NCBI RefSeq assembly: GCF_965219595.1
Contig: NZ_OZ244781.1
Coordinates: 133,429-197,428 of the forward strand
From: Candidatus Poriferisodalis sp.
GTDB lineage: Bacteria > Actinomycetota > Acidimicrobiia > Acidimicrobiales > Poriferisodalaceae
Length of the DNA stretch: 64,000 nucleotides
Reading direction: 5' to 3'
The position numbers and the translations under genes were made by a program. Shown here piece after piece: positions 1,329-45,385 of the stretch. The notes beneath the pieces are model-generated. The model was given only the letters and a program-made list of their open reading frames with translations, was not told the origin of the DNA and ran no database searches. The first letter of the stretch is position 1; each line of letters starts with the position of its first letter.

Positions 1329-3011
1329 CTAGGCCGGGACGGGACGGGCCCGGGGGCTGAGCTCTACGGCTGCGGCGGATTCGGCGGCGTGATAGCTCGA
1401 ACGGGTCAGCGGGCTCGACTCGACATGGTCGATGCCGAGCGCGGTGCCTGCCTCCCGCCAACGTTCGAAGGACTCGGGCGGCACCCAGCGAGCGACCGGA
1501 ATGTGATGGCTCGTCGGTCGCAGGTACTGGCCGATCGTGACAATGCTCACGCCGACAGCCGCCAGGTCGGCCAGCGTGAGATCGACTTCTGCGTCGTCCT
1601 CGCCCATGCCGACGATGATGCCCGACTTGGTGATGTGTCCCGCCGAGGCGCTGCGCGCCAGCAGAGCGAGGCTGCGGGCGTAGCCCGCCGAGGGCCGTAC
1701 CGCCCGCTGCAACCGGGCGACGGTCTCGATGTTGTGATTCAGAGTGTCGGGGCTCGCATCGAGAACTGTCTGCAGCGAGGAGGCATCGCCGGCGAAGTCG
1801 GGCACCAGCACCTCGACGGTCGTGCCGGGCGACCGATCCCGGATGGCGGCGATGGTCTCGGCGAAGGCAGCGGCCCCGCCGTCGGGAAGATCGTCCCGGG
1901 CCACGGCGGTGACCACCGCATGATCCAGCCCCATTTCGGCCACCGCATCGGCGACGCGGCGGGGCTCGCCGGGATCGAGCGGCGCAGGCTGGCGAGTGTC
2001 CACGAGACAGAAGCCGCATGCACGCGTGCACCGCTCGCCGTTGAGCATGAACGTGGCCGTGCCTGCCCCCCAGCACTCGAAGATGTTCGGGCAGCCGGCT
2101 TCCTCGCACACCGTCACCAGCTCGTGCTGTCGCATCACCCGGCGCAGCCGGAGATAGCCGTCGTTCAGGTCCATCCCGGCACGCAGCCACGACGGCTTCC
2201 GCTCGCCGAGACCCAATCCGCCGTCTACCCCAGCTTCGGCCAAGCGCGCTCTGCTACGAGGCGGCGAGACCTCGACCGGTCTGGAGGGTTGCCCTGGACC
2301 CTGGCCCCGGCTGAATGCACTGAGGTCGGAAGGGCGGTGGCGCCACGCCACGTCTGCGCGCTCGCAGCCGGTTGCGCTCCATCTCTCGGCTGCACGCCCG
2401 ACCACGGCGTCGGCCACCTCGCGCATGGTTGCTGCGCAGCCCTCGGCTCGCAACGACGTCGGCCGGAAGTCGCGGATGCCGCACGGGATGATCCGTTCGA
2501 ACCACGACAGATCCGTCTCGACGTTCAGCGCGAAGCCGTGCATCGTGCGGCCGCGGCTCAGGCGCACGCCGATGGCGGCAATCTTGCGCGGTGTGCCCTC
2601 GAGATCCAGCCACACCCCCGGATACCCGCGGAAACGGCCGCAGCCGGGCAGCCCCAGGTCGGCCAGCGCATCGATGAGCACCTGTTCCAGATCGCACACG
2701 TACGCCGAAGTCTCCGCCAATCCCCCGCCGCGGCGACCGGGCAGCGTCAGGATCGGGTAGCCGACGAGCTGGCCGGGACCGTGGTAGGTGAAGTCGCCGC
2801 CGCGGTCGATGCGGACGCAGTCGGCGCCAACGTCGCCGGGATCGACGAGCAGGTTGGCCTCGTCTGCGCTCGGGCCCGCAGTGAAGACGTGGTGGTGTTC
2901 GAGCAGCAGCAGGTAGTTCTCCGCGCTGTGCGCCCACAGGCGCCGCTGCAAGTCGAGCGCTTCGCGGAAGCCGACCCTCCCGAGCCAGCGCACCTGCAGC
3001 ACGGAGCGCAC
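1329..3011 (-). CDS. lipB-lipA: fused octanoyltransferase LipB / lipoyl synthase LipA in one 560-aa reading frame
   Basis: GTG at 3011 lies 2 nt after the E2 stop. The N-half has LipB signatures (HHHVFTAGP, RGGDFTYHGPGQLVGYPIL, KIAAIGVR..TMHGFALN). The C-half has LipA radical-SAM signatures (CEEAGCPNIFECW, CTRACGFC, SGIIVGMGE, TIGQYLRP). There is no stop codon between the halves. Confidence 0.85.
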   Translation of the reverse strand: MRSVLQVRWLGRVGFREALDLQRRLWAHSAENYLLLLEHHHVFTAGPSADEANLLVDPGDVGADCVRIDRGGDFTYHGPGQLVGYPILTLPGRRGGGLAETSAYVCDLEQVLIDALADLGLPGCGRFRGYPGVWLDLEGTPRKIAAIGVRLSRGRTMHGFALNVETDLSWFERIIPCGIRDFRPTSLRAEGCAATMREVADAVVGRAAERWSATGCERADVAWRHRPSDLSAFSRGQGPGQPSRPVEVSPPRSRARLAEAGVDGGLGLGERKPSWLRAGMDLNDGYLRLRRVMRQHELVTVCEEAGCPNIFECWGAGTATFMLNGERCTRACGFCLVDTRQPAPLDPGEPRRVADAVAEMGLDHAVVTAVARDDLPDGGAAAFAETIAAIRDRSPGTTVEVLVPDFAGDASSLQTVLDASPDTLNHNIETVARLQRAVRPSAGYARSLALLARSASAGHITKSGIIVGMGEDDAEVDLTLADLAAVGVSIVTIGQYLRPTSHHIPVARWVPPESFERWREAGTALGIDHVESSPLTRSSYHAAESAAAVELSPRARPVPA

Positions 3012-3013
3012 AG

Positions 3014-4414
3014 CTAGAACTCCGCTCCCCAGTCGTGCTGTTCGAGCATCTGGCGGATGTGGCCCAGGAACCCTGCGGCGTAGCTGCCGTCGAATGCACG
3101 GTGATCCCAGCCCATCGCCAGGTGGCCCACCGAATGCACCACAATGCTCTCGTTGCCGAACCGGTCCGTGACCACGACTGGGCGCCGGGCCACGCCGTCG
3201 GTGGAGAGCACAGCCACCTGGGGCTGGTTGATGATGGCTGCCGTGGTGTAGGTGCCGAAGGATCCGTTGTTGGAGATGGTGAATGTGCCACCGCTGATGT
3301 CGTCGGGCGTCAGGCGCCGTTCCCGGGCACGCGCCGCGAGCTCGTTCATCGTGCGGGCCACGCCTCGCAGGCTGAACGAGTCGGCGTCTCGCAGCACCGG
3401 CACGATCAGCCCGTCGTAGTCGAGGTCCACGGCGACGCCGATGTTGCGACGACGCCAGATGCGCAGGCCGCCGTCCTCCACCGAGGCGTTCAGCCGTGGC
3501 CATTGGGCCAGGGCGTCAGCGACGGCAACCACGATGAACGGCAGGTAGGTGAGGCTGAATCCCTCCGCAGCCCGCCACGCCTCGCGGTGGGCCCGGCGCA
3601 CCTGCTCCACATTCTCGTAGTCGACCTCGACGACGGTGAGGGCGTGCGGCGACGTGGCCATGGAGTTCACCATGTGCTCGCCGGTTCGGCGGCGGATGTT
3701 GTTGAACGACTCGTAGCGCGAGTCGCCGTCGGTCCATTCAGCCGCAGCAGCGGCGGCGACCGGTGCTGGCACGGGCGGCGGACCGGGCGCCGAAGTGCGT
3801 TCGCCGGCAGCCGGTCTGGCCGGAGACGTCGTGGGGCCCGCACTCGCAGCTGCGGCACGTTGCCGCTCGTCGATGGCGTTGAGCACATCGGACCGGGTGA
3901 TACGACCGCCGACGCCCGTGCCCACGAGGGCGGCAGGGTCGAGGCCATGCTCTCGTACCAGGCGCCGGACGACGGGCGAGAGCAAGTGGCTGCCATGGTC
4001 GGTTGCAGGCCCGTTCGCTGCGCCGTTGGCCCGTCCAGCAGCCGCACTCGCAGCGACAGGTGCAGCGGCGGGCACCGCTGGCGGCTCAGCCGGTGCAGCC
4101 GTCGGAGCGGCAGCCGGTTCTGCTGGCGCGCCACTGGGCACGGGGATTGCCGCATCGGGCGGCGGCGCGACAGCGCCTTCGGGCAGCTCGACGATCGCCA
4201 GCACCGTCCCGACGTCCACGGTCTCGCCCTCGGGGACGCGTATCTCGGTGAGTACCCCCTCCATCGGCGAGGGCACTTCGCTGTCGACCTTGTCGGTCGA
4301 CACCTCGTAGAGCATCTCGCCCACCGAGATCGCATCACCCGGGTTCTTGAACCAGCGAGTGATGGTGCCCTCGGTGACGGTCTCGCCGAGCTGGGGCAGC
4401 ACCAAGTCAGCCAT
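3014..4414 (-). CDS. sucB: dihydrolipoamide acyltransferase, E2 component of a 2-oxoacid dehydrogenase complex
   Basis: Lipoyl domain (LPQLGETVTEGTITRWFK...EVSTDKVDSEVPSP), Ala/Pro linker, E3-binding domain (LSPVVRRLVREHGLDPAALVGTGVGGRITRSDV) and catalytic domain with DHRAFDG. Confidence 0.93.
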   Translation of the reverse strand: MADLVLPQLGETVTEGTITRWFKNPGDAISVGEMLYEVSTDKVDSEVPSPMEGVLTEIRVPEGETVDVGTVLAIVELPEGAVAPPPDAAIPVPSGAPAEPAAAPTAAPAEPPAVPAAAPVAASAAAGRANGAANGPATDHGSHLLSPVVRRLVREHGLDPAALVGTGVGGRITRSDVLNAIDERQRAAAASAGPTTSPARPAAGERTSAPGPPPVPAPVAAAAAAEWTDGDSRYESFNNIRRRTGEHMVNSMATSPHALTVVEVDYENVEQVRRAHREAWRAAEGFSLTYLPFIVVAVADALAQWPRLNASVEDGGLRIWRRRNIGVAVDLDYDGLIVPVLRDADSFSLRGVARTMNELAARARERRLTPDDISGGTFTISNNGSFGTYTTAAIINQPQVAVLSTDGVARRPVVVTDRFGNESIVVHSVGHLAMGWDHRAFDGSYAAGFLGHIRQMLEQHDWGAEF

Positions 4415-4453: not shown

Positions 4454-5917
4454 TCATCCGTGCAGACCTCGCCCGGTGAGCGAGAGCATCGTCTCGCCGA
4501 AGAGCTCTGACAGCGTGGGGTGGGGCTGCACCAGCGCCGCCACTTCGGCGACCGTGGCCTCCCAGTTCACCGCCAGGTAACCCTGACCGAGCTGCTCGGT
4601 GACCCACGGCCCCATCATGTGAACGCCGAGCACGCGCCCGGCAGTGCCGTCGGCCTCGCGCTCGGCCACGATCTTGACGAGGCCCTCGGTGTCGTTGACG
4701 ATCATCGCCCGAGAGTTGCCGGTGAAGCGGTGCTTGGACGTCACCACCTCGTAACCGGCTTCGCGAGCCGTCGCCTCGGTGAGCCCCGCAAACGCCACCT
4801 CGGGATGGCAGTAGATCGCCCAGGGCACGTTCGCGTAGTCGACCGGCGCCGGTTCTTCGCCGAGCATGTCTTTCGTGGCCACGATCGCCTCGGCGAACCC
4901 GACATGGGCGAGCTGCGGCGTATTGATGAGATCGCCGATGGCATAGACGCCGGCCATGGTGGTGCGGCACATCTCGTCGGCCACTACGAAACCCCGCTCG
5001 TCGAGCTTGACCTCGGTGCCGTCGAGGCCGAGATGATCTGCGTACGGTCGGCGTCCCACCGACACCACCACGGCATCGACCTCGAGGGACGCTTCGGTCA
5101 TGTCGCCGTCGCCGGAGCGGGGAGCGATCTCGTACTGCACGGTGGTTCCGCTGCCATCGGGAGTGTGGCCGGTGACCCGGCAGCCGGTCAGCACCGTGAT
5201 CCCCCGCTTGGAGAACGCCCGAGCGAGGGCCTTGGCGATGTCGGCGTCGACGCCGGGGATGATCTGCGGCGCGTATTCGAGGACGGTGACTTCGGCGCCG
5301 AGATCGGCCAGCATCGAAGCGAACTCGCAACCGATGGCGCCCCCGCCGATCACGGCCACACGGCTCGGCACCTCGTCGAGTGCCAAGACCTCGTCGGAGG
5401 TCATCACCAGCGTGCCGTCGCGATCGAATCCCGGCAGCGTGATCGGCACCGAACCCGCTGCGAGGAGCACCTGATCGCCCTGCAGCGTCTGGATGCCGGA
5501 CTCGCCTGCGTCGACCTCGACTGAACGGTCGGCACGCAGCCGTCCCGTGCCCTCGTAGGTCGCGACCTTGCGGCGACGCAGGAGCCCCTTCACCCCGGTC
5601 TCGAGGCCGTCGACGATGCGCTGCTTGCGGCCCTGCGAAACGGCGAAGTCCAGCTCAGGCGGCTCGACATTGACGCCGAATTCGGCGGCCTCGCCGACGG
5701 TGCGCCAGACCGCTGCTGTCTCGAGCAGTTCCTTGGCGGGAATGCAGCCTCGATGCAGGCACGTGCCGCCGAGCCGGTCGCGTTCCACGAGGGCGACGCT
5801 CATGCCTGCGGCGCCGGCGTACAGGGCTGCCCCGTAGCCCGCAGGGCCTCCGCCGATCACCACGAGGTCGTACCGAACCGGGCTGCCTGTCTCGCCGGAG
5901 TTCGTGTCATCTGCCAT
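4454..5917 (-). CDS. lpdA: dihydrolipoyl dehydrogenase (E3)
   Basis: Internal ATG at 5917 gives MADDTNSG..YDLVVIGGGPAGYGAALYAA (FAD fold), GGTCLHRGCIPAK redox disulfide and a C-terminal HPTLSE interface motif. The longer upstream ORF extension is low-complexity. Confidence 0.93.
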   Translation of the reverse strand: MADDTNSGETGSPVRYDLVVIGGGPAGYGAALYAGAAGMSVALVERDRLGGTCLHRGCIPAKELLETAAVWRTVGEAAEFGVNVEPPELDFAVSQGRKQRIVDGLETGVKGLLRRRKVATYEGTGRLRADRSVEVDAGESGIQTLQGDQVLLAAGSVPITLPGFDRDGTLVMTSDEVLALDEVPSRVAVIGGGAIGCEFASMLADLGAEVTVLEYAPQIIPGVDADIAKALARAFSKRGITVLTGCRVTGHTPDGSGTTVQYEIAPRSGDGDMTEASLEVDAVVVSVGRRPYADHLGLDGTEVKLDERGFVVADEMCRTTMAGVYAIGDLINTPQLAHVGFAEAIVATKDMLGEEPAPVDYANVPWAIYCHPEVAFAGLTEATAREAGYEVVTSKHRFTGNSRAMIVNDTEGLVKIVAEREADGTAGRVLGVHMMGPWVTEQLGQGYLAVNWEATVAEVAALVQPHPTLSELFGETMLSLTGRGLHG

Positions 5918-6095
5918 CGCGCGACGAGGGTACGCCGCGTTTCCGACCGGTTCGCACCGCGGCCCCGCAGCATGCACTTCGCCCGAGCACGGCAGTGCTA
6001 CAGCGCGATGAGCACCTGGACTGCGAACGCCATCAGGATGACCATCCCGGTCACGAGTGCCAAAGCAATCAATGCCCGGGTGCTCACCGGGCTGA

Positions 6096-6761
6096 ATGTA
6101 TCCCGCGCTATTGCATCCTGGACCCAGGGATAGGCTCGGCAAGGTGACGCATCCGCGGTACCGAGCGGTCATCGTGCTGCTGGCCGGGCTGGCAGGTCTC
6201 GGCGTTCTGGCCAGCTGCGGGAGCGTTGAGGTCAGCGTGTCCCGGGATACGGCGGCCACGGCATCTGCTGCCGAGGTGCCCACGACCACCTCCGGCGGCA
6301 CCGACACCGGTGCGGCTGTCGAGCCAGCAGCGACGACTGCCCCGGTCACCCAGGAGACCCGGGCCGAGATCCTGCTGCTGGAAGGCGCGCTGCTCGACGG
6401 GCAGCAGTTCGATCTGGCTGCAGCGGCTGGCAACGATGTCCTGCTGTGGTTCTGGGCGCCTTGGTGACCGGCGTGCAATCGTGAAGCGCCTGCGGTCGCA
6501 GCGCTGAAGGCAGAGCACGGCGACAGCTTGGTCCTGGTGGGCGTTCCGGGCGGCGACTCCCAGGATTCCTACCGGAAGTTCGTGGCCAAGCACCAGCTCG
6601 GCGACGTCCCGCAGCTCAGCAACGAGGACGGCGATCTGTGGGACCAGCTCGGCAACAGCTACCAGCCGAGGTGGATGCTGGTGCGGGCCGACGGAAGCAT
6701 CGAGCGCGGCGGCGGCACGCCCCCGCCCGACATCGTTCACGACGCGCTCACGCCCGCCTGA
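6096..6761 (+). CDS. TlpA/ResA-like thiol:disulfide oxidoreductase lipoprotein, predicted selenoprotein (in-frame TGA 6465-6467 read as Sec, motif W-U-P-A-C)
   Basis: ORFs 6096..6467 and 6528..6761 share one frame and are interrupted only by the TGA. Signal peptide plus lipobox LASC; ...DVLLWFWAPW[TGA]PACNREAP...LVLVGVPGGDS...YQPRWMLVRADGSI is a complete thioredoxin-fold TlpA pattern. Alternative start GTG 6144. Confidence 0.7.
6485..6505 (+). promoter_or_regulatory. candidate bacterial SECIS hairpin downstream of TGA 6465
   Basis: A-GCG-C-CUGC[GGUC]GCAG-CGC-U: 8 bp in two helices, one bulged C on the 5' side and a GGUC apical loop about 29 nt after the UGA. Confidence 0.55.
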
Positions 6762-6769
6762 GAACAGCC

Positions 6770-7228
6770 ATGGCCAAGCCGAAGCAGCGGAGCGTGAGTG
6801 TGGAACGGCTCATTGTCGCTCCCGCGGAGAAGATCTTCGCGGTGCTGACCGATCCCGGCCGTCATTGCGAGATCGACGGCTCGGGAACACTGGCTCGCCT
6901 GACCACCAGCGCTGCCCCGCTGACGCTGGGCAGCACGTTCTCGATGCGCATCAAAGTCGGCGTTTCCTACACCGTGAAGAATCGGGTGTTGGAGTTCGAG
7001 GAGAACCGCCTGATCACCTGGGCGCACTGGCAGGGCCAGCGCTGGAGCTACCGGCTCGAACCACAGCCCGACGGCAGCACGCTGGTGCGCGAGACCTTCG
7101 ACTGGTCCACTGCGAAGCTGCCGCGGAGCGTCGAGCTCATCGGAGCTCACAAGAAGAACGTGGCCAACATGGAAAAGACGCTCGAGCGGCTCGCCGCACT
7201 CGTCGAGACCCCCGTCGACGGCGACTAG
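6770..7228 (+). CDS. SRPBCC (START/polyketide cyclase-like) family protein
   Basis: ATG 6770; MAKPKQRSVSVERLIVAPAEKIFAVLTDPGRH...TFDWS. Size (152 aa) and N-terminal pattern are typical of SRPBCC ligand-binding proteins. Confidence 0.75.
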   Translation: MAKPKQRSVSVERLIVAPAEKIFAVLTDPGRHCEIDGSGTLARLTTSAAPLTLGSTFSMRIKVGVSYTVKNRVLEFEENRLITWAHWQGQRWSYRLEPQPDGSTLVRETFDWSTAKLPRSVELIGAHKKNVANMEKTLERLAALVETPVDGD

Positions 7229-8289
7229 TCGCCGGGTTCGATCACCCAGACATCGTCCAGCGCATCCTCCAGGCGCCGGTTCAGATCGCCCAGCGTGCGG
7301 TCGTCAGCGCGGCGAACCAGCACGGCTTCGTCGCAGTTGTGCATGAACCAGGTGTCCCGGCGACGCATCGCCTTGCCGAATGCCTCGGTGTCCGCCGGCA
7401 CGCGGTTCGCGAGCACGAATTCCTGCTCTGCACGCTGGCGCAGCTCTGCAAAGCGCTGGCGTGACGGCCCCGGCCACCGCCGCTCGACGCCCTCGAATGC
7501 CAGCACCACCACATAGGGCACACCGGCCGCGAGCGCAGCCTCAGCACCCAGGGTCTCGGCGCCGAGCCCCAGGCCCGTCGCTACGACGAGATCGGCATGC
7601 AGCTCGCGCTTGGCCGCAATGACGTCGCTCAGCTGCCGGAGCACCTTGCGCGAGACCGGGTTCTCGTTGTAGCCGCCGAGTTCCGGCGGCCGGTGGCCCA
7701 GCACGGCCACCGAGTGACCGGTGATCTCTCGGTTCCCCGACGTCGGTTCGTCGGTGCTCACGGCACCCTTCGCCGGGCGGTTCGGTGTCGAACGCGGGTC
7801 GCTCAGCCGATCGAGCACGTCATCGTCGAACCGGTTGCCGCTCTGGCCGGCACCTGCCCCCGCAGCATGCACAGCCAGCGCGTCGGCAGCGGAGTTCAGC
7901 CGCTGGCCGGCATGACCCTTCACCCACTCGAACGTCACCTCGCTCCGCGCCAGCACGGCCTCGATGAATGGCTCCCACAAATCCCGGTTGGCCACCGGCT
8001 TCTTCGCAGTGTTCAGCCAGTTGCGCCGGTGCCAGCCCTTCCACCACTCGTCGGTGAAGCACTTCACCACGTAGGTGGAGTCGCTGACGATCCGCAGCGG
8101 TCCGTCCAAGTCCTCAACGGCTTGCGCCGCGGCCGCGACCTCCATGCGCTGGTTGGTGGTGGAGGGCTCGAAGCCGCAGGCCCACGGCCCGCCGTCGACC
8201 ACGTAGGCCCAGCCGCCCGGACCTGGATTGCCCAGGCATGACCCGTCGGTGAAGACCTCTCGCGCTGCCGCGTTCGATTTCTGGCTCAT
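7225..8289 (-). CDS. rnhA: RNase HI fused to a C-terminal YpsA/DUF1273-like SLOG domain
   Basis: N-terminal FTDGSCLGNPGPGGWAYV...RMEVAAA...SDSTYV...WVKGHAG is RNase HI. The C-terminal VLGHRPPELGGY...VATGLGLGAETLGAEAALAAGVPYVVVLAFEGVERRW parallels B. subtilis YpsA (ITGYKPFELG...ISGQLGVELWAAEAA...VITPF..W). Confidence 0.8.
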   Translation of the reverse strand: MSQKSNAAAREVFTDGSCLGNPGPGGWAYVVDGGPWACGFEPSTTNQRMEVAAAAQAVEDLDGPLRIVSDSTYVVKCFTDEWWKGWHRRNWLNTAKKPVANRDLWEPFIEAVLARSEVTFEWVKGHAGQRLNSAADALAVHAAGAGAGQSGNRFDDDVLDRLSDPRSTPNRPAKGAVSTDEPTSGNREITGHSVAVLGHRPPELGGYNENPVSRKVLRQLSDVIAAKRELHADLVVATGLGLGAETLGAEAALAAGVPYVVVLAFEGVERRWPGPSRQRFAELRQRAEQEFVLANRVPADTEAFGKAMRRRDTWFMHNCDEAVLVRRADDRTLGDLNRRLEDALDDVWVIEPGD

Positions 8290-43193: not shown

Positions 43194-44690
43194 ATGGCTT
43201 CGAGCGCTGACGGGAACACGGCCGACGACGCGGCAGCGAAGGTGCCGCGGAACGGCTTGGTCGCCGTGGTGAAACGGGACTGTCCGACGTGCGAGCTGAT
43301 CGAGCCGGTGCTCGCGGACATCGAGGCCCGGGGCTCGCTGACCGTGTTCACCCAGGATGACCCCGCCTTCCCCGAGGCGGTCTCAGCCCGGTTGCACGAC
43401 GACGACCTTGGCTTTTCGTGGCATCACGACATCGAGACGGTGCCGACGCTGATGCGGTTCGCCGACGGCGGCGAGGCCGGCCGCATCGTGGGGTGGTCCC
43501 GACTCGAATGGGAATCATTCACCGGGCTCGGCAGCCTGGGCGACGGCCTGCCCGAACACCGGCCCGGCTGCGGTTCGCTCTCGGTCGACCCAGCTCACGT
43601 CGACGCCTTGGAGGCCCGCTTCGGCAGCTCGGGCCTGAGCGCTCGTCGGGTCGAATTCGGCAGTCAGGAAGACGCCCACGAGGCGATGTTCGACCGGGGC
43701 TGGTCGGACGGTTTGCCGCTGGTTCCACCCACAGCTGAGCGAGTCGCAGCGATGCTGGCAGGCACGTCGCGTGCAGCCGACGAGGTGGTGGCCAATGTCG
43801 CACCCGATCTCGCCGACTGCACGGTCGAGAAGGCCGCGGTCAACGCCGTGATGGCCGGCTGCCGGCCCGAGTACTTCCCGGTGGTGCTGGCTGGCCTGAC
43901 CGCCGTGTGCAATGACACGTTCAACATGCACGGAATGCTGGCCACCACTATGCCGGTCGGGCCTGTGTTCATCGTGAACGGGCCGATCGCCCGCCAGATC
44001 GGCATGAACAACGGGATCAACGTGTTCGGCCAGGGCAACCGGGCCAACAGCACGATCGGGCGGGCGGTGCAGCTCATCGTGCGCAACGTGGGCGGCGGGC
44101 GTCCCGGCGAAGTGGACCGGGCGGCGCTCGGCCAGCCCGGCAAGGTGGGCTTCTGCTTTGCCGAGATCGAAGGGGCCGAGGCAGCCACCGGCGCAGGCTG
44201 GGACCCGCTGTGCACCGACTTCGGCTTCGAGGCCGGCACCAACACCGTGACAGCCTTCCCCGGCGAAGGGCCTCGCTCCGTGGTCGACCAGCTCTCTCGT
44301 GATCCCGAGTCGCTGGCGCGCACCATGGCAGCCACGCTGAATGCGATCCACCACCCGAAGCTGGTGCTGGGTTTCGATGCGATCCTCGCGGTGGCGCCCG
44401 ACCATTCCCGCGTGTTCATCGACAGTGGCTGGACACGCCAGCAGACTGCCGAGCGCATCAACGAGCTGACTACCCGGTCAGGCTCCGAGCTGGTGCGCGG
44501 CGCTGGCGGCATCGCCGAGGGCGTGCCGGAGTTCCTCGCCGAGGCGGACCTGCCGAAGTTCCGTGAGGGAGGCCTGCACCTGGTGCACTGCGGCGGCGGT
44601 GCGGGGCTCTTCTCGGCGGTCATCGGCGGCTGGGTGAACGGCGAGGTCGGCGCTCAGCCCGTCTGCGTCGAGATCGATTCCTGGCGATAG
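43194..44690 (+). CDS. thioredoxin-like domain (CPTC) fused to a ~380-aa domain of unknown function
   Basis: N-terminal VAVVKRDCPTCELIEPVL...VPTLMRF..G has a thioredoxin-fold layout. The remainder (GWSDGLPLVPPTAERV..M, EKAAVNAVMAGC.PEYFPV, GQGNRANSTIGRAVQL) is not recognised. Confidence 0.8.
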   Translation: MASSADGNTADDAAAKVPRNGLVAVVKRDCPTCELIEPVLADIEARGSLTVFTQDDPAFPEAVSARLHDDDLGFSWHHDIETVPTLMRFADGGEAGRIVGWSRLEWESFTGLGSLGDGLPEHRPGCGSLSVDPAHVDALEARFGSSGLSARRVEFGSQEDAHEAMFDRGWSDGLPLVPPTAERVAAMLAGTSRAADEVVANVAPDLADCTVEKAAVNAVMAGCRPEYFPVVLAGLTAVCNDTFNMHGMLATTMPVGPVFIVNGPIARQIGMNNGINVFGQGNRANSTIGRAVQLIVRNVGGGRPGEVDRAALGQPGKVGFCFAEIEGAEAATGAGWDPLCTDFGFEAGTNTVTAFPGEGPRSVVDQLSRDPESLARTMAATLNAIHHPKLVLGFDAILAVAPDHSRVFIDSGWTRQQTAERINELTTRSGSELVRGAGGIAEGVPEFLAEADLPKFREGGLHLVHCGGGAGLFSAVIGGWVNGEVGAQPVCVEIDSWR

Positions 44691-44866: not shown

Positions 44867-45385
44867 ATGAGCACTGTCGTCTTGGACCCGACCAACGAAG
44901 CGGCACCCGCCCATCGTGAGCGGGTCACCCGGCCCGATTCGCTGGACGGCCTCACCGTGGGCCTGCTGGACATCAGCAAGCCCCGCGGCGACCGCTTCCT
45001 GAACCGGCTCGAGGAACGGCTGACCGAGCGGGGCCTGCGCGTCGAGCGCTACTCCAAGCCCACGTTCACCAAGCCGGCCCCGGTCGACCTGCGCCACGAG
45101 ATCGCCACCAAGTGCGACGTGGTGATCGAAGCGCTAGCCGATTGAGGCAGCTGCACGTCGTGCAGTGTGCACGACATCGCTGATCTGGAACGCCGCGGCA
45201 TCCCGTCGGTGTTCGTCGCCACCGTCCAGTTCGTCGACGGGGCCGAGGTACAGGGCAAGGCGCTCGGCTTCGACCCGGCGGCCGTATGGGTGGAGCATCC
45301 CATCCAGGACCGCACCGACGACGAGATGGTCGCCATCGCTGACAAGGCCTTCGACGAGCTGATCGAACAGCTCGTAGCTGCTTGA
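44867..45385 (+). CDS. UGSC-family protein, predicted selenoprotein (in-frame TGA 45143-45145 read as Sec)
   Basis: ORFs 44867..45145 and 45167..45385 share one frame. Read-through gives ...VVIEALAD[TGA]GSCTSCSVHDIADLERRGIPSVFV.T..F, i.e. the U-G-S-C motif that names this family. Confidence 0.72.
45157..45175 (+). promoter_or_regulatory. candidate bacterial SECIS hairpin downstream of TGA 45143
   Basis: GUCGUGCA-GUG-UGCACGAC: 8-bp perfect stem starting 14 nt after the UGA with G/U in the apical loop. An alternative 6-bp hairpin lies at 45151-45165. Confidence 0.5.

Follow-up and report, generated by a model that had tools for sequence, protein, structure and literature searches.

The window, a stretch of 64,000 nucleotides from Candidatus Poriferisodalis sp., contains two open reading frames on the forward strand, 6096–6467 and 6528–6761, which share the identical frame and are separated by a single TGA at 6465–6467. 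This TGA ends the first frame, and no further stop codon occurs between the two; translated across it, the sequence reads W-*-P-A-C. The initial annotation had reported the same two frames split by a single TGA, and both the coordinates and the frame were borne out. Its proposal of a complete read-through lipoprotein also stood, apart from the translation start. This had been placed at ATG 6096, and GTG 6144 is more likely because the orthologues start, or have a methionine, at that aligned position. The features of the gene, and of a second gene with an in-frame TGA, are listed in Table 1.

Table 1. Predicted features of the two genes with an in-frame TGA (coordinates of the window).
Feature	Position	Strand	Remarks
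Complete CDS, predicted selenoprotein	6144–6761	+	205 codons; probable start GTG 6144 (alternative ATG 6096); TGA 6465 read through; genuine stop TGA 6759–6761
Predicted signal peptide with lipobox	6144–6218	+	L-A-S-C at 6207–6218; read from sequence
Active-site motif W-U-P-A-C	6462–6476	+	TGG TGA CCG GCG TGC; predicted Sec codon 6465–6467
Pro of conserved Q-P, putative cis-Pro of the thioredoxin fold	6666–6668	+	In the half encoded 3' of the TGA
Candidate SECIS apical hairpin	6485–6505	+	Comparative and folding data
Possible extended lower SECIS stem	6468–6520	+	6468–6470/6518–6520 and 6474–6476/6515–6517; RNAalifold consensus
UGSC-family gene, second predicted selenoprotein of the window	44867–45385	+	Predicted Sec codon TGA 45143–45145; A-D-U-G-S-C
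SECIS-like hairpin of the UGSC-family gene	45157–45175	+	8-bp perfect stem; GUG loop from 19 nt after the UGA

The protein begins with a basic-hydrophobic segment followed by the lipobox, which at the sequence level predicts an extracytoplasmic location. The lipobox Cys (6216–6218) is the predicted lipid-modified residue 1 of the mature protein, and lipoprotein processing would take place there. It was kept in 8/8 aligned sequences of the selenocysteine (Sec) form and in four of six Cys homologues. A low-complexity linker of Ala, Thr and Pro follows and extends up to approximately position 6370. TGA is the normal stop of 29 of the 48 genes here, the commonest ordinary stop codon, and it also terminates the gene itself. 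Consequently, UGA is not globally reassigned.

The read-through product matched the Pfam families Redoxin (PF08534, 6.9e-12) and AhpC/TSA (PF00578, 1.1e-11), both matches spanning the TGA, and exceeded the gathering scores of Redoxin, AhpC-TSA and Thioredoxin_8. The best matches among solved structures were DsbF (Rv1677, 3IOS; 7.6e-21, over residues 80–191) and DsbE/MPT53 (Rv2878c, 1LU4; 5.1e-18) from Mycobacterium tuberculosis. These matches are remote; they extend over about 110 residues and include the active site. DsbF has lWFWAPWCPtC where the protein described here has LWFWAPW-U-PAC. The Q-P loop aligned as well: its Q and P are invariant across the Sec clade and correspond to the QQP of DsbF and the WQP of DsbE, and the Pro is presumably in the cis conformation. 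The protein thus shows the DsbE-DsbF thioredoxin fold with W-C-x-x-C motif and putative cis-Pro loop, in which the first Cys of DsbF and DsbE would be replaced by Sec. All three proteins belong to the TlpA-like superfamily and are exported, which for the present protein is a prediction; the long Ala/Thr/Pro-rich linker after the lipobox is a further difference. M. tuberculosis DsbF is annotated as a lipoprotein, and the mycobacterial DsbF and DsbE were characterized as oxidants.

The gene product had initially been described as TlpA/ResA-like. This holds for the superfamily and the redoxin fold. TlpA from Bradyrhizobium, ResA from Bacillus and CcmG/DsbE, which are reductases in the maturation of cytochrome c or Cu centres, share the superfamily and the membrane-tethered extracytoplasmic location. 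ResA structures matched at about 1e-7 to 1e-8 and the NCBIfam TlpA/ResA models at about 1e-9. However, the scores were far below the cutoffs for TlpA (NF047696, 37.4 bits versus 230) and ResA (NF002854, 36.9 versus 170). Therefore, the protein is a member of the superfamily and not an orthologue of TlpA or ResA, its nearest characterized relatives being the actinobacterial DsbF and DsbE. Genes of the ccm, res or ccdA type were not found adjacent to it; its neighbours are lipA/B, E2, lpd, an SRPBCC protein, RNase H and aceE.

Selenoproteins with a UxxC thioredoxin fold and thiol:disulfide-interchange selenoproteins have long been known (PMC1976440, PMC2398784, PMC13188914), in agreement with the initial annotation. 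The known Trx-, Prx- and TlpA-like selenoproteins follow the same principle, namely Sec in place of the N-terminal Cys of a redox motif and a bacterial SECIS element (bSECIS) just 3' of it (PMC1976440, PMC2398784, PMC13188914). Set beside the published families by description, the present protein differs in its motif, W-U-P-A-C instead of UGC, in its host, a sponge symbiont of the Acidimicrobiia, and in being a predicted lipoprotein. None of the curated NCBIfam selenoprotein models reached its cutoff with this protein (ResA-like WAxxUGC, 27.9 bits versus 300).

The placement of the TGA at the first Cys of the CxxC motif, as originally proposed, agrees with the alignment: in six full-length Cys homologues the TGA column is occupied by the first Cys of WCPxC, and Cys likewise stands there in 81 genomic Cys forms and in the DsbF and DsbE structures. 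TGA stands at the Sec position in 9/9 orthologous loci; eight orthologous loci, drawn from sponge metagenomes and from Candidatus Poriferisodalis, carried it without exception and with conserved synteny. The orthologous loci remain open in frame for 97–103 codons after the TGA. The sequence 3' of it is under purifying selection, with a median dN/dS of 0.25 at dS values from 0.35 to approximately 1.6, and dN/dS 5' of the TGA is 0.14. The same column also holds TGA in seven metagenomic loci of greater distance, which comprise six distinct sequences with 30–37% identity. In a search of 5.8 billion proteins all close relatives (51–97% identity, 14 distinct sequences) were gene calls ending exactly with ...WFWAPW, and the nearest full-length Cys form was 39% identical. 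Over the sequence searches the closest full-length Cys homologues were at most 39–45% identical. Conservation within the protein is highest in P-A-C-x-R-E-A-P-A-V-A-x-L-K, the stretch that contains the resolving Cys and that is encoded by the 20 codons from the TGA to the start called for the downstream frame. Nine of 11 metagenomic matches retrieved with the peptide pattern R-E-A-P-A-V carried the TGA.

A hairpin, GCGC-C-UGC[GGUC]GCA-GCGC, is located at 6486–6504 and can be extended by the pair A6485-U6505. It consists of a lower helix (6485–6489/6501–6505), a bulged C at 6490, a 3-bp helix (6491–6493/6498–6500) and the tetraloop GGUC (6494–6497). The hairpin is part of the MFE fold and has an energy of −10.5 kcal/mol alone (−11.6 kcal/mol by eval). 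The distance to the beginning of its loop is 29 nt from the U of the UGA and 26 nt from the A. In the published bSECIS model the upper stem comprises 4–16 bp, the MFE is at most −7.5 kcal/mol and the UGA is 16–37 nt away from the apical loop (PMC13188914). The hairpin agrees with this model in every constraint, having a 4-nt loop beginning with GG, 8 bp with one bulged C, a distance of 26 nt and an energy of −10.5 kcal/mol. Both the hairpin at 6486–6504 with its loop about 29 nt from the UGA and a spacing compatible with bacterial SECIS models had been suggested at the outset, and both proved correct.

The stability of the structure was unremarkable against the background of 68% G+C, with z-scores of −0.94 over the 61-nt region and −1.58 for the isolated hairpin, and the folding energy did not separate the two forms of the gene (mean of −14.4 kcal/mol for Sec forms versus −14.1 kcal/mol for Cys forms). 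When the bSECIS model was applied in our own implementation to every UGA triplet of the window, 12% had a compliant hairpin 3' of them. For this reason, the hairpin counts as evidence only via the comparative data. Among 36 fourfold degenerate sites with a conserved amino acid only seven were invariant, and the hairpin core holds five of these seven (Fisher p = 5.6e-5). Two rare codons, CCT (6.8% of Pro) and GCA (11.7% of Ala), are kept there. The GGUC loop is invariant in nine orthologues. Covariation inside the close clade is thin and amounts to one pair, 6488/6502, which varies between G-C, U-A and U-G. In the distant forms L093, L095 and L096 the helix CUGC/GCAG is changed to CGGC/GCCG (U-A to G-C) around the same GGUC loop. 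Of 16 Sec forms, 12 had a hairpin with a GGUC loop at this offset, and of 81 Cys forms none did; the Cys forms were a control set from a scan of genome contigs with WFWAPWC, back-translated using a Cys codon. The architecture of 3 bp, GGUC and a 5' bulged pyrimidine occurred only twice in 128 kb (the window on both strands). These data show that the hairpin is under constraint at the nucleotide level and is specific for the Sec forms.

The candidate SECIS shares its apical plan with that of E. coli fdhF: a 3-bp helix, the tetraloop GGUC and a single 5' bulged pyrimidine, followed by a G+C-rich helix. The fdhF element reads GG(U)UGCA[GGUC]UGCACC and the element described here GCGC(C)UGC[GGUC]GCAGCGC. 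The loop begins 26 nt after the UGA in this gene and 18 nt after it in fdhF, and the lower stems differ. Of the fdhF-like SelB determinants originally ascribed to the hairpin, the GGUC loop and the 5' bulged pyrimidine were found, but the bulge is a C rather than the U of fdhF. By analogy with fdhF, the hairpin may be recognized by SelB. An extended lower stem possibly encloses the apical hairpin; it is a weak candidate because it shows no covariation and two of its pairs are broken in some sequences. Rfam, which is without a bacterial SECIS model, gave only chance matches to snoRNAs and lncRNAs, both in a search of the whole window at gathering thresholds and in a permissive search of 6400–6600.

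The UGSC-family gene of the window had initially been noted for a motif-positioned TGA at 45143. This TGA is real and in frame, and it occupies the U position of a curated selenoprotein family, NCBIfam NF041046, which the gene matched with 153 bits (cutoff 125). In its relatives the gene is split by gene callers into pieces of 92 and 72 amino acids (6/6 loci shown), and both halves match Pfam UGSC (PF24696). In the index of the sequence collection, 254 blocks list its exact N-terminal fragment. The SECIS-like hairpin behind its TGA has an energy of −10.9 kcal/mol and a z-score of −3.44. A scan of the window for in-frame TGA candidates left only 6465 and 45143 as credible; four other candidates were rejected as adjacent genes in a shared frame or as non-coding frames.

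According to ARAGORN, neither the window nor any of the fetched loci contained a tRNA-Sec, and tblastn searches with E. coli SelA, SelB and SelD against the same sequences (1.38 Mb of loci plus the window) returned generic GTPase matches only. Since these searches cover only about 1–2% of a genome of approximately 4 Mb, their outcome is uninformative rather than negative. SelA and SelB were reported to be enriched among sponge-symbiont genomes (PMC5649159). The sponge metagenome project that yielded locus L090 also produced an Acidimicrobiia bin which encodes SelA, SelB and SelD and which, like the UGSC-family gene of the window, lends indirect support to Sec machinery in the present genome. 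Another Acidimicrobiia bin of PMC5649159, bin134, which has the higher G+C of the two (68.7%; 90% complete), encodes SelD without SelA or SelB; either bin may belong to a lineage other than the present one (PMC5649159). The G+C content of the window, 68.1%, is close to that of bin134.

Is the TGA at 6465 a defect or a true end of translation? A nonsense mutation or sequencing error could have turned TGC, TGT or TGG into TGA; from TGC or TGT one base change suffices, and a single sequence taken alone could allow it. A sequencing error, which the initial annotation had named as grounds for rejection, is ruled out because the TGA is shared by independent assemblies. It is present in nine orthologous loci independently assembled from different samples and in the seven distant loci, and a single erroneous template for all assemblies is excluded because the sequences diverge. 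Furthermore, the 97 downstream codons acquired neither a second stop nor a frameshift despite dS values of up to about 1.6, and the selection on both sides of the TGA (dN/dS 0.14 and 0.25) is not that of a pseudogene, so that a decayed or misread gene is exceedingly improbable. Termination at 6465, with the small frame from TTG 6528 to 6761 as an independent gene and the two pieces perhaps assembling, corresponds to the split that gene callers annotate in every public relative (downstream calls of 75–83 amino acids). However, the called downstream starts vary among the relatives, the 20 most conserved codons with the resolving Cys in frame would stay untranslated, and the thioredoxin fold would be cut within its CxxC motif, whereas the full-length homologues are all single chains. 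Natural termination in close homologues, likewise named initially as a possible objection, does not apply, for all nine loci combine the TGA with a conserved in-frame C-terminal half. Two separate genes are accordingly very unlikely.

A more serious competitor is read-through without selenium, in which UGA 6465 is read as Trp, Cys, Gly or Arg by a suppressor or near-cognate tRNA and the hairpin only stimulates read-through or pausing. The conserved TGA, the selected frame and the conserved hairpin demand translation through the UGA and leave the inserted residue unspecified, and genes of the Sec machinery did not appear in the 1–2% of the genome searched. Yet the UGA lies exactly at the position of the catalytic Cys, and no residue but Cys or Sec would preserve activity there. 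If Cys were needed, TGC or TGT would be one mutation away, but TGA has been held over dS > 1. The hairpin bears the SelB-recognition features of fdhF and complies with the bSECIS model (PMC13188914), and the same window encodes a member of a curated selenoprotein family whose TGA likewise falls on the Sec position. Hence we regard selenium-free read-through as unlikely, although less so than the two alternatives above.

It is almost certain that the TGA at 6465 specifies selenocysteine, as an active-site residue of a thiol-disulfide oxidoreductase that this sponge-associated actinobacterium anchors to its membrane. We assign a probability of about 90% to the reading that one gene, from GTG 6144 to the TGA ending at 6761, encodes by recoding of UGA a lipid-anchored extracytoplasmic thioredoxin-fold oxidoreductase of the actinobacterial DsbE/DsbF type. 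The Sec-containing extracytoplasmic oxidoreductase postulated in the initial annotation is thereby supported through the alignment of the TGA with Cys, its conservation in orthologues and the constraint on the hairpin. Sec insertion, SelB binding, lipidation, the catalytic direction (oxidant or reductant) and the substrates we infer from sequence comparison. During translation UGA 6465 would be recoded, with the hairpin 26 nt downstream inside the coding sequence acting as bacterial SECIS and recruiting SelB-GTP-Sec-tRNASec to the ribosome. Translation would then run for 97 codons and finish the fold, whose resolving Cys, central sheet and cis-Pro loop all lie in this part. Once the protein is exported and lipidated on its lipobox Cys, its Sec/Cys pair would cycle between selenol/thiol and selenylsulfide and may exchange reducing equivalents with proteins of the envelope.

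Should this reading be true, an Acidimicrobiia lineage of sponge symbionts would be added to the apparent selenocysteine users, which fits the enrichment of SelA and SelB in sponge symbionts (PMC5649159). Somewhat short of even odds, and therefore as a tentative proposal, the protein may be the founding example of a so far unannotated Sec-containing subfamily of DsbE/DsbF-type envelope lipoproteins that is fixed across Candidatus Poriferisodalaceae and is kin to Sec forms of other metagenomic lineages. On this proposal Actinomycetota would possess an extracytoplasmic lipid-anchored selenoprotein, which would hint at selenium-dependent redox chemistry of the envelope as a sponge-symbiont trait. 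UxxC thioredoxin-fold proteins are the commonest class among bacterial selenoproteins. The understanding of Sec decoding is left unchanged, and the protein would be a real but fairly ordinary addition to a known class. For annotation, the public records give two 'hypothetical proteins' in every relative seen, and the UGSC gene is treated likewise; reading the TGA as a Sec codon would restore a complete envelope redox enzyme. The fdhF-type apex with GGUC loop and bulge apparently recurs in a distant phylum. In the proposed subfamily the candidate SECIS would be embedded where the first helix following the active site is encoded, so that its RNA constraints would freeze the residues R-E-A-P-A-V. 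The gene is a clean natural case of RNA and protein constraints acting on the same nucleotides.

The window has a G+C content of 68%. Two of its open reading frames lie in the same frame and are separated by a single stop codon (see table), with the surrounding codons TGG TGA CCG GCG TGC reading W-stop-P-A-C. When the TGA was taken as Cys, the read-through product matched the Pfam families Redoxin (6.9e-12), AhpC/TSA, Thioredoxin_8 and Thioredoxin, all above the gathering scores, and the matched segments crossed the TGA. Codon reading and domain matches thus bear out the initial annotation, which had joined both frames into one gene with one in-frame TGA. Translation most likely starts at GTG 6144, because the starts of the orthologues, or a Met, fall at the aligned position; this placement would refine the start codon of the initial annotation. 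At the N-terminus, basic residues and a hydrophobic stretch precede the lipobox L-A-S-C; a low-complexity Ala/Thr/Pro linker and then the redoxin domain follow. The lipobox Cys is kept in all aligned sequences of the Sec form, i.e. homologues with a TGA at the first-Cys column of WCPxC.

This column was defined by alignment with six full-length Cys homologues and with the solved structures of M. tuberculosis DsbF (3IOS, match 7.6e-21) and DsbE/MPT53 (1LU4, match 5.1e-18). In each case the first Cys of WCPxC aligned with the TGA, as had been proposed, and the Q-P of the presumed cis-Pro loop likewise aligned with both M. tuberculosis proteins. The proposed TlpA/ResA-type identity was retained only in part. 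The protein does match the NCBIfam models for TlpA (37 bits versus a cutoff of 230), ResA (37 versus 170) and ResA-like WAxxUGC proteins (28 versus 300), but no curated NCBIfam model was reached at its cutoff and the nearest family is DsbE/DsbF. The protein is neither TlpA nor ResA proper, nor is its mechanism new.

A search of a 5.8-billion-protein collection with the read-through protein yielded 21 matches. The 14 close ones (51–97% identity in the aligned part) were all short gene calls stopping exactly at ...LLWFWAPW; four are labelled "hypothetical protein [Candidatus Poriferisodalis sp.]", a taxon placed in the Acidimicrobiia, family Candidatus Poriferisodalaceae. The nearest full-length homologues in this search were at most 39% identical and contained WFWAPWCPxC. 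Orthologous DNA was obtained from seven relatives' loci and from MKWU, a metagenome assembly of the sponge Aplysina aerophoba, giving nine sequences including the window. The gene order lipA/B fusion, E2, lpd, main gene, SRPBCC protein, RNase H, aceE was kept.

In all nine sequences the TGA directly follows the W codon and precedes 97–103 in-frame open codons encoding a conserved C-terminal half. Pairwise dN/dS 3' of the TGA had a median of 0.25 at dS values of 0.35 to about 1.6; upstream of the TGA dN/dS was 0.14. The TGA was retained as synonymous sites neared saturation, and translation does extend into the downstream frame. These data exclude a pseudogene as well as a sequencing error, the latter an explanation raised in the initial annotation. 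Natural termination followed by a separate downstream gene, also raised there, is very unlikely, since gene finders leave 20 codons between the TGA and the downstream start that they call, and this stretch, which encodes the resolving Cys, shows the strongest conservation in the protein.

Coordinates of the features in the window.
Feature	Coordinates	Strand	Remarks
Two open reading frames of the main gene	6096..6467 and 6528..6761	+	same frame; TGA 6465-6467 sole stop separating them
Hairpin of the main gene	6486-6504; 6485-6505 with an additional A-U pair	+	bulged C 6490; GGUC tetraloop 6494-6497
UGSC-family gene	44867-45385	+	172 codons; TGA 45143-45145; NCBIfam NF041046
Hairpin of the UGSC gene	45157-45175	+	8 bp; GUG loop beginning 19 nt after UGA; -10.9 kcal/mol, z = -3.44
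Conserved protein 5' of the UGSC gene	43194-44690	+	~500 aa; no Pfam match
Near-palindromic hairpin	6104-6124	both	GCAUCCUGGACCCAGGGAUAG on + strand
LipB/LplA-LipA protein	about 1329-3017	-	
RNase H-domain protein	7225-8289	-	354 aa
Mechanical ORF	4454-6478	-	674 aa; overlaps the main gene

The hairpin downstream of the TGA was recovered by folding with the GGUC loop and 5' bulged pyrimidine initially described. It is part of the minimum free energy (MFE) fold of the region and alone has -10.5 kcal/mol. The consensus model of bacterial SECIS elements comprises a loop of 3–9 nt with G[G/U] first, an upper stem of 4–16 bp, a UGA-loop spacing of 16–37 nt and an MFE <= -7.5 kcal/mol (PMC13188914). 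The main-gene hairpin falls within all of these limits, and its spacing of 26 nt agrees with the earlier statement that the loop lies within the bacterial range. Given the base composition the stability is unremarkable, with z scores of -0.94 (region) and -1.58 (hairpin), and by our own implementation of the published model a satisfying hairpin follows 12% of the window's 1,439 UGA triplets (both strands, any frame). Consequently, seen in a single sequence, the hairpin counts as weak evidence. As an argument for Sec insertion it gains from comparative constraint and specificity for Sec forms, but not from stability.

Among the nine orthologues 36 fourfold-degenerate sites encode a conserved amino acid. 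Seven of these are invariant, and five of the seven belong to the consecutive hairpin codons CCT GCG GTC GCA ... CTG, a significant enrichment (Fisher's exact test, p = 5.6e-5). The codons CCT (6.8% of Pro) and GCA (11.7% of Ala), although rare in this genome, are fixed in 9/9 sequences. In contrast, the Pro codon two positions 5' of the TGA shows all four synonyms. The sole variable stem position shows compensated changes: it is G-C in five sequences, U-A in two, U-G in one and a G/A mismatch in one, so that covariation inside this close clade is thin.

JGI metagenomes were scanned with the C-terminal half only, which made the scan blind to the TGA. Ten further loci with 30–37% identity were found, seven of them (two identical to each other) with a TGA at the same column in the motif W/H/N/T-U-P-[AS]-C-R-R-E-A-P. 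The mutually identical loci L091 and L092 have TGC; the tenth, L100, duplicates one TGA locus and was omitted from later counts. Because the peptide P[AS]C[NR]REAPA served as anchor, the sample is biased to that motif, yet its association with TGA is striking. In L093, L095 and L096 the GGUC loop is closed by CGGC/GCCG, not CUGC/GCAG, with both partners of one pair changed. L094, L097 and L098 instead carry, a few nt further downstream, a hairpin of 5–7 bp whose loop is AGUU[CU]. These loci suggest a broader clade of Sec forms with SECIS turnover. Overall, a GGUC tetraloop with a closing helix of 3 bp or more was present at the same offset in 12 of 16 Sec-form loci versus 0 of 81 loci with a Cys codon, and some Cys forms lacking it still encode the E-A-P-A-V peptide. 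By these comparisons, selection acts on the hairpin at the nucleotide level, and the hairpin is specific to Sec forms.

The SelB determinants of E. coli fdhF are the loop G and U plus a bulged U. The apex of its SECIS (taken from NC_000913.3), GG(U)UGCA[GGUC]UGCACC, combines a 3-bp helix with a GGUC tetraloop and, on the 5' side, a bulged pyrimidine. The main-gene apex, GCGC(C)UGC[GGUC]GCAGCGC, has an identical plan. This strict architecture occurs just twice in 128 kb (the window, both strands).

The only other match in the window to this GGUC loop and bulge pattern is the minus strand of the near-palindromic hairpin in the intergenic region separating lpd from the divergently oriented selenoprotein gene. 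It is located 20 nt 5' of GTG 6144 and could be an operator or 5'-UTR element.

No tRNA genes were found in the window. The genes selA, selB and selD are absent from the window and the fetched loci, which is uninformative because these cover about 1–2% of a genome of roughly 4 Mb. The indirect evidence for Sec decoding in this organism is good. A systematic scan of the window for in-frame TGAs with coding-like flanks gave only 6465 and 45143 as credible candidates. The latter, previously noted as a second motif-positioned TGA, was confirmed and lies in a second selenoprotein gene: this gene matches the NCBIfam model "UGSC family (seleno)protein" with 153 bits versus a cutoff of 125, and the TGA coincides with the U of A-D-U-G-S-C. 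The contig collection indexes an identical N-terminal fragment in 254 blocks. In 6/6 relatives' loci shown, gene callers split the gene into 92 + 72 aa, and both pieces match Pfam UGSC. TGA is the ordinary stop of 29 of the 48 genes predicted for the window, the main gene among them; thus UGA has not been reassigned across the genome. According to Slaby et al. (PMC5649159), most symbiont bins of Aplysina aerophoba have SelA together with SelB. Their Table S4 lists the Acidimicrobiia bin76 with SelA, SelB and SelD and the 90% complete bin134 with SelD only (PMC5649159). Either bin, or neither, may represent the Poriferisodalis lineage, so the contrast cuts both ways. Universal Sec machinery was reported for Actinomarina, another Acidimicrobiia lineage (bioRxiv 10.64898/2026.04.03.716425). 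The indirect evidence for Sec decoding in this organism is good.

Near the UGSC gene, relatives of this region (L102-L107) encode a small MauE/DoxX-family membrane protein (124–145 aa) between prolyl oligopeptidase and flavin reductase genes; these loci are relatives of the window at about 42.1–42.6 kb. MauE/DoxX proteins are linked to envelope disulfide/redox chemistry. Directly 5' of the UGSC gene lies the gene for the conserved ~500-aa protein, which has a counterpart of 493–513 aa without Pfam match at the same position in 6/6 relatives' loci. According to the GOS paper, UGSC is in some organisms fused to an unknown conserved domain, so this protein may be a functional partner of UGSC.

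We consider the main gene a genuine selenoprotein gene with a probability of about 0.9. The proposal of a Sec-containing extracytoplasmic thiol:disulfide oxidoreductase is supported, at the level of sequence, by TGA conservation, Cys-column alignment and hairpin constraint. The product would be a lipid-anchored extracytoplasmic enzyme of the actinobacterial DsbE/DsbF type with Sec as the attacking residue, and the in-ORF hairpin would recruit SelB, which would insert Sec. The neighbouring genes (2-oxoacid dehydrogenase genes, SRPBCC protein, RNase H, aceE) give no clue to the substrate; ccm, res, ccdA and sco genes are not among them. Among bacterial selenoproteins, the UxxC thioredoxin-fold type forms the largest class. 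Since no curated NCBIfam model is reached at cutoff and the gene is split in public annotations, its most apt description is an unannotated new member or subfamily of this class.

The mechanical ORF overlapping the selenoprotein gene was rejected as an artefact caused by the high G+C content; lpd itself encodes ~485 aa (484–487 aa in relatives) with its N-terminus extending to near 5900. Adjoining the E2 and E3 genes, an apparent lipoyl-transferase/lipoyl-synthase fusion combines a LipB/LplA-type catalytic domain and a radical-SAM (LipA) domain in one predicted protein. Counterparts are kept across relatives (e.g. L001 222-1883 and L004 246-2006), with 553–586 aa including the window. The RNase H-domain protein has this domain at its N-terminus, followed by a C-terminal half of ~200 aa for which no Pfam family is listed in any relative; the position of its gene is kept in relatives with contigs extending there.
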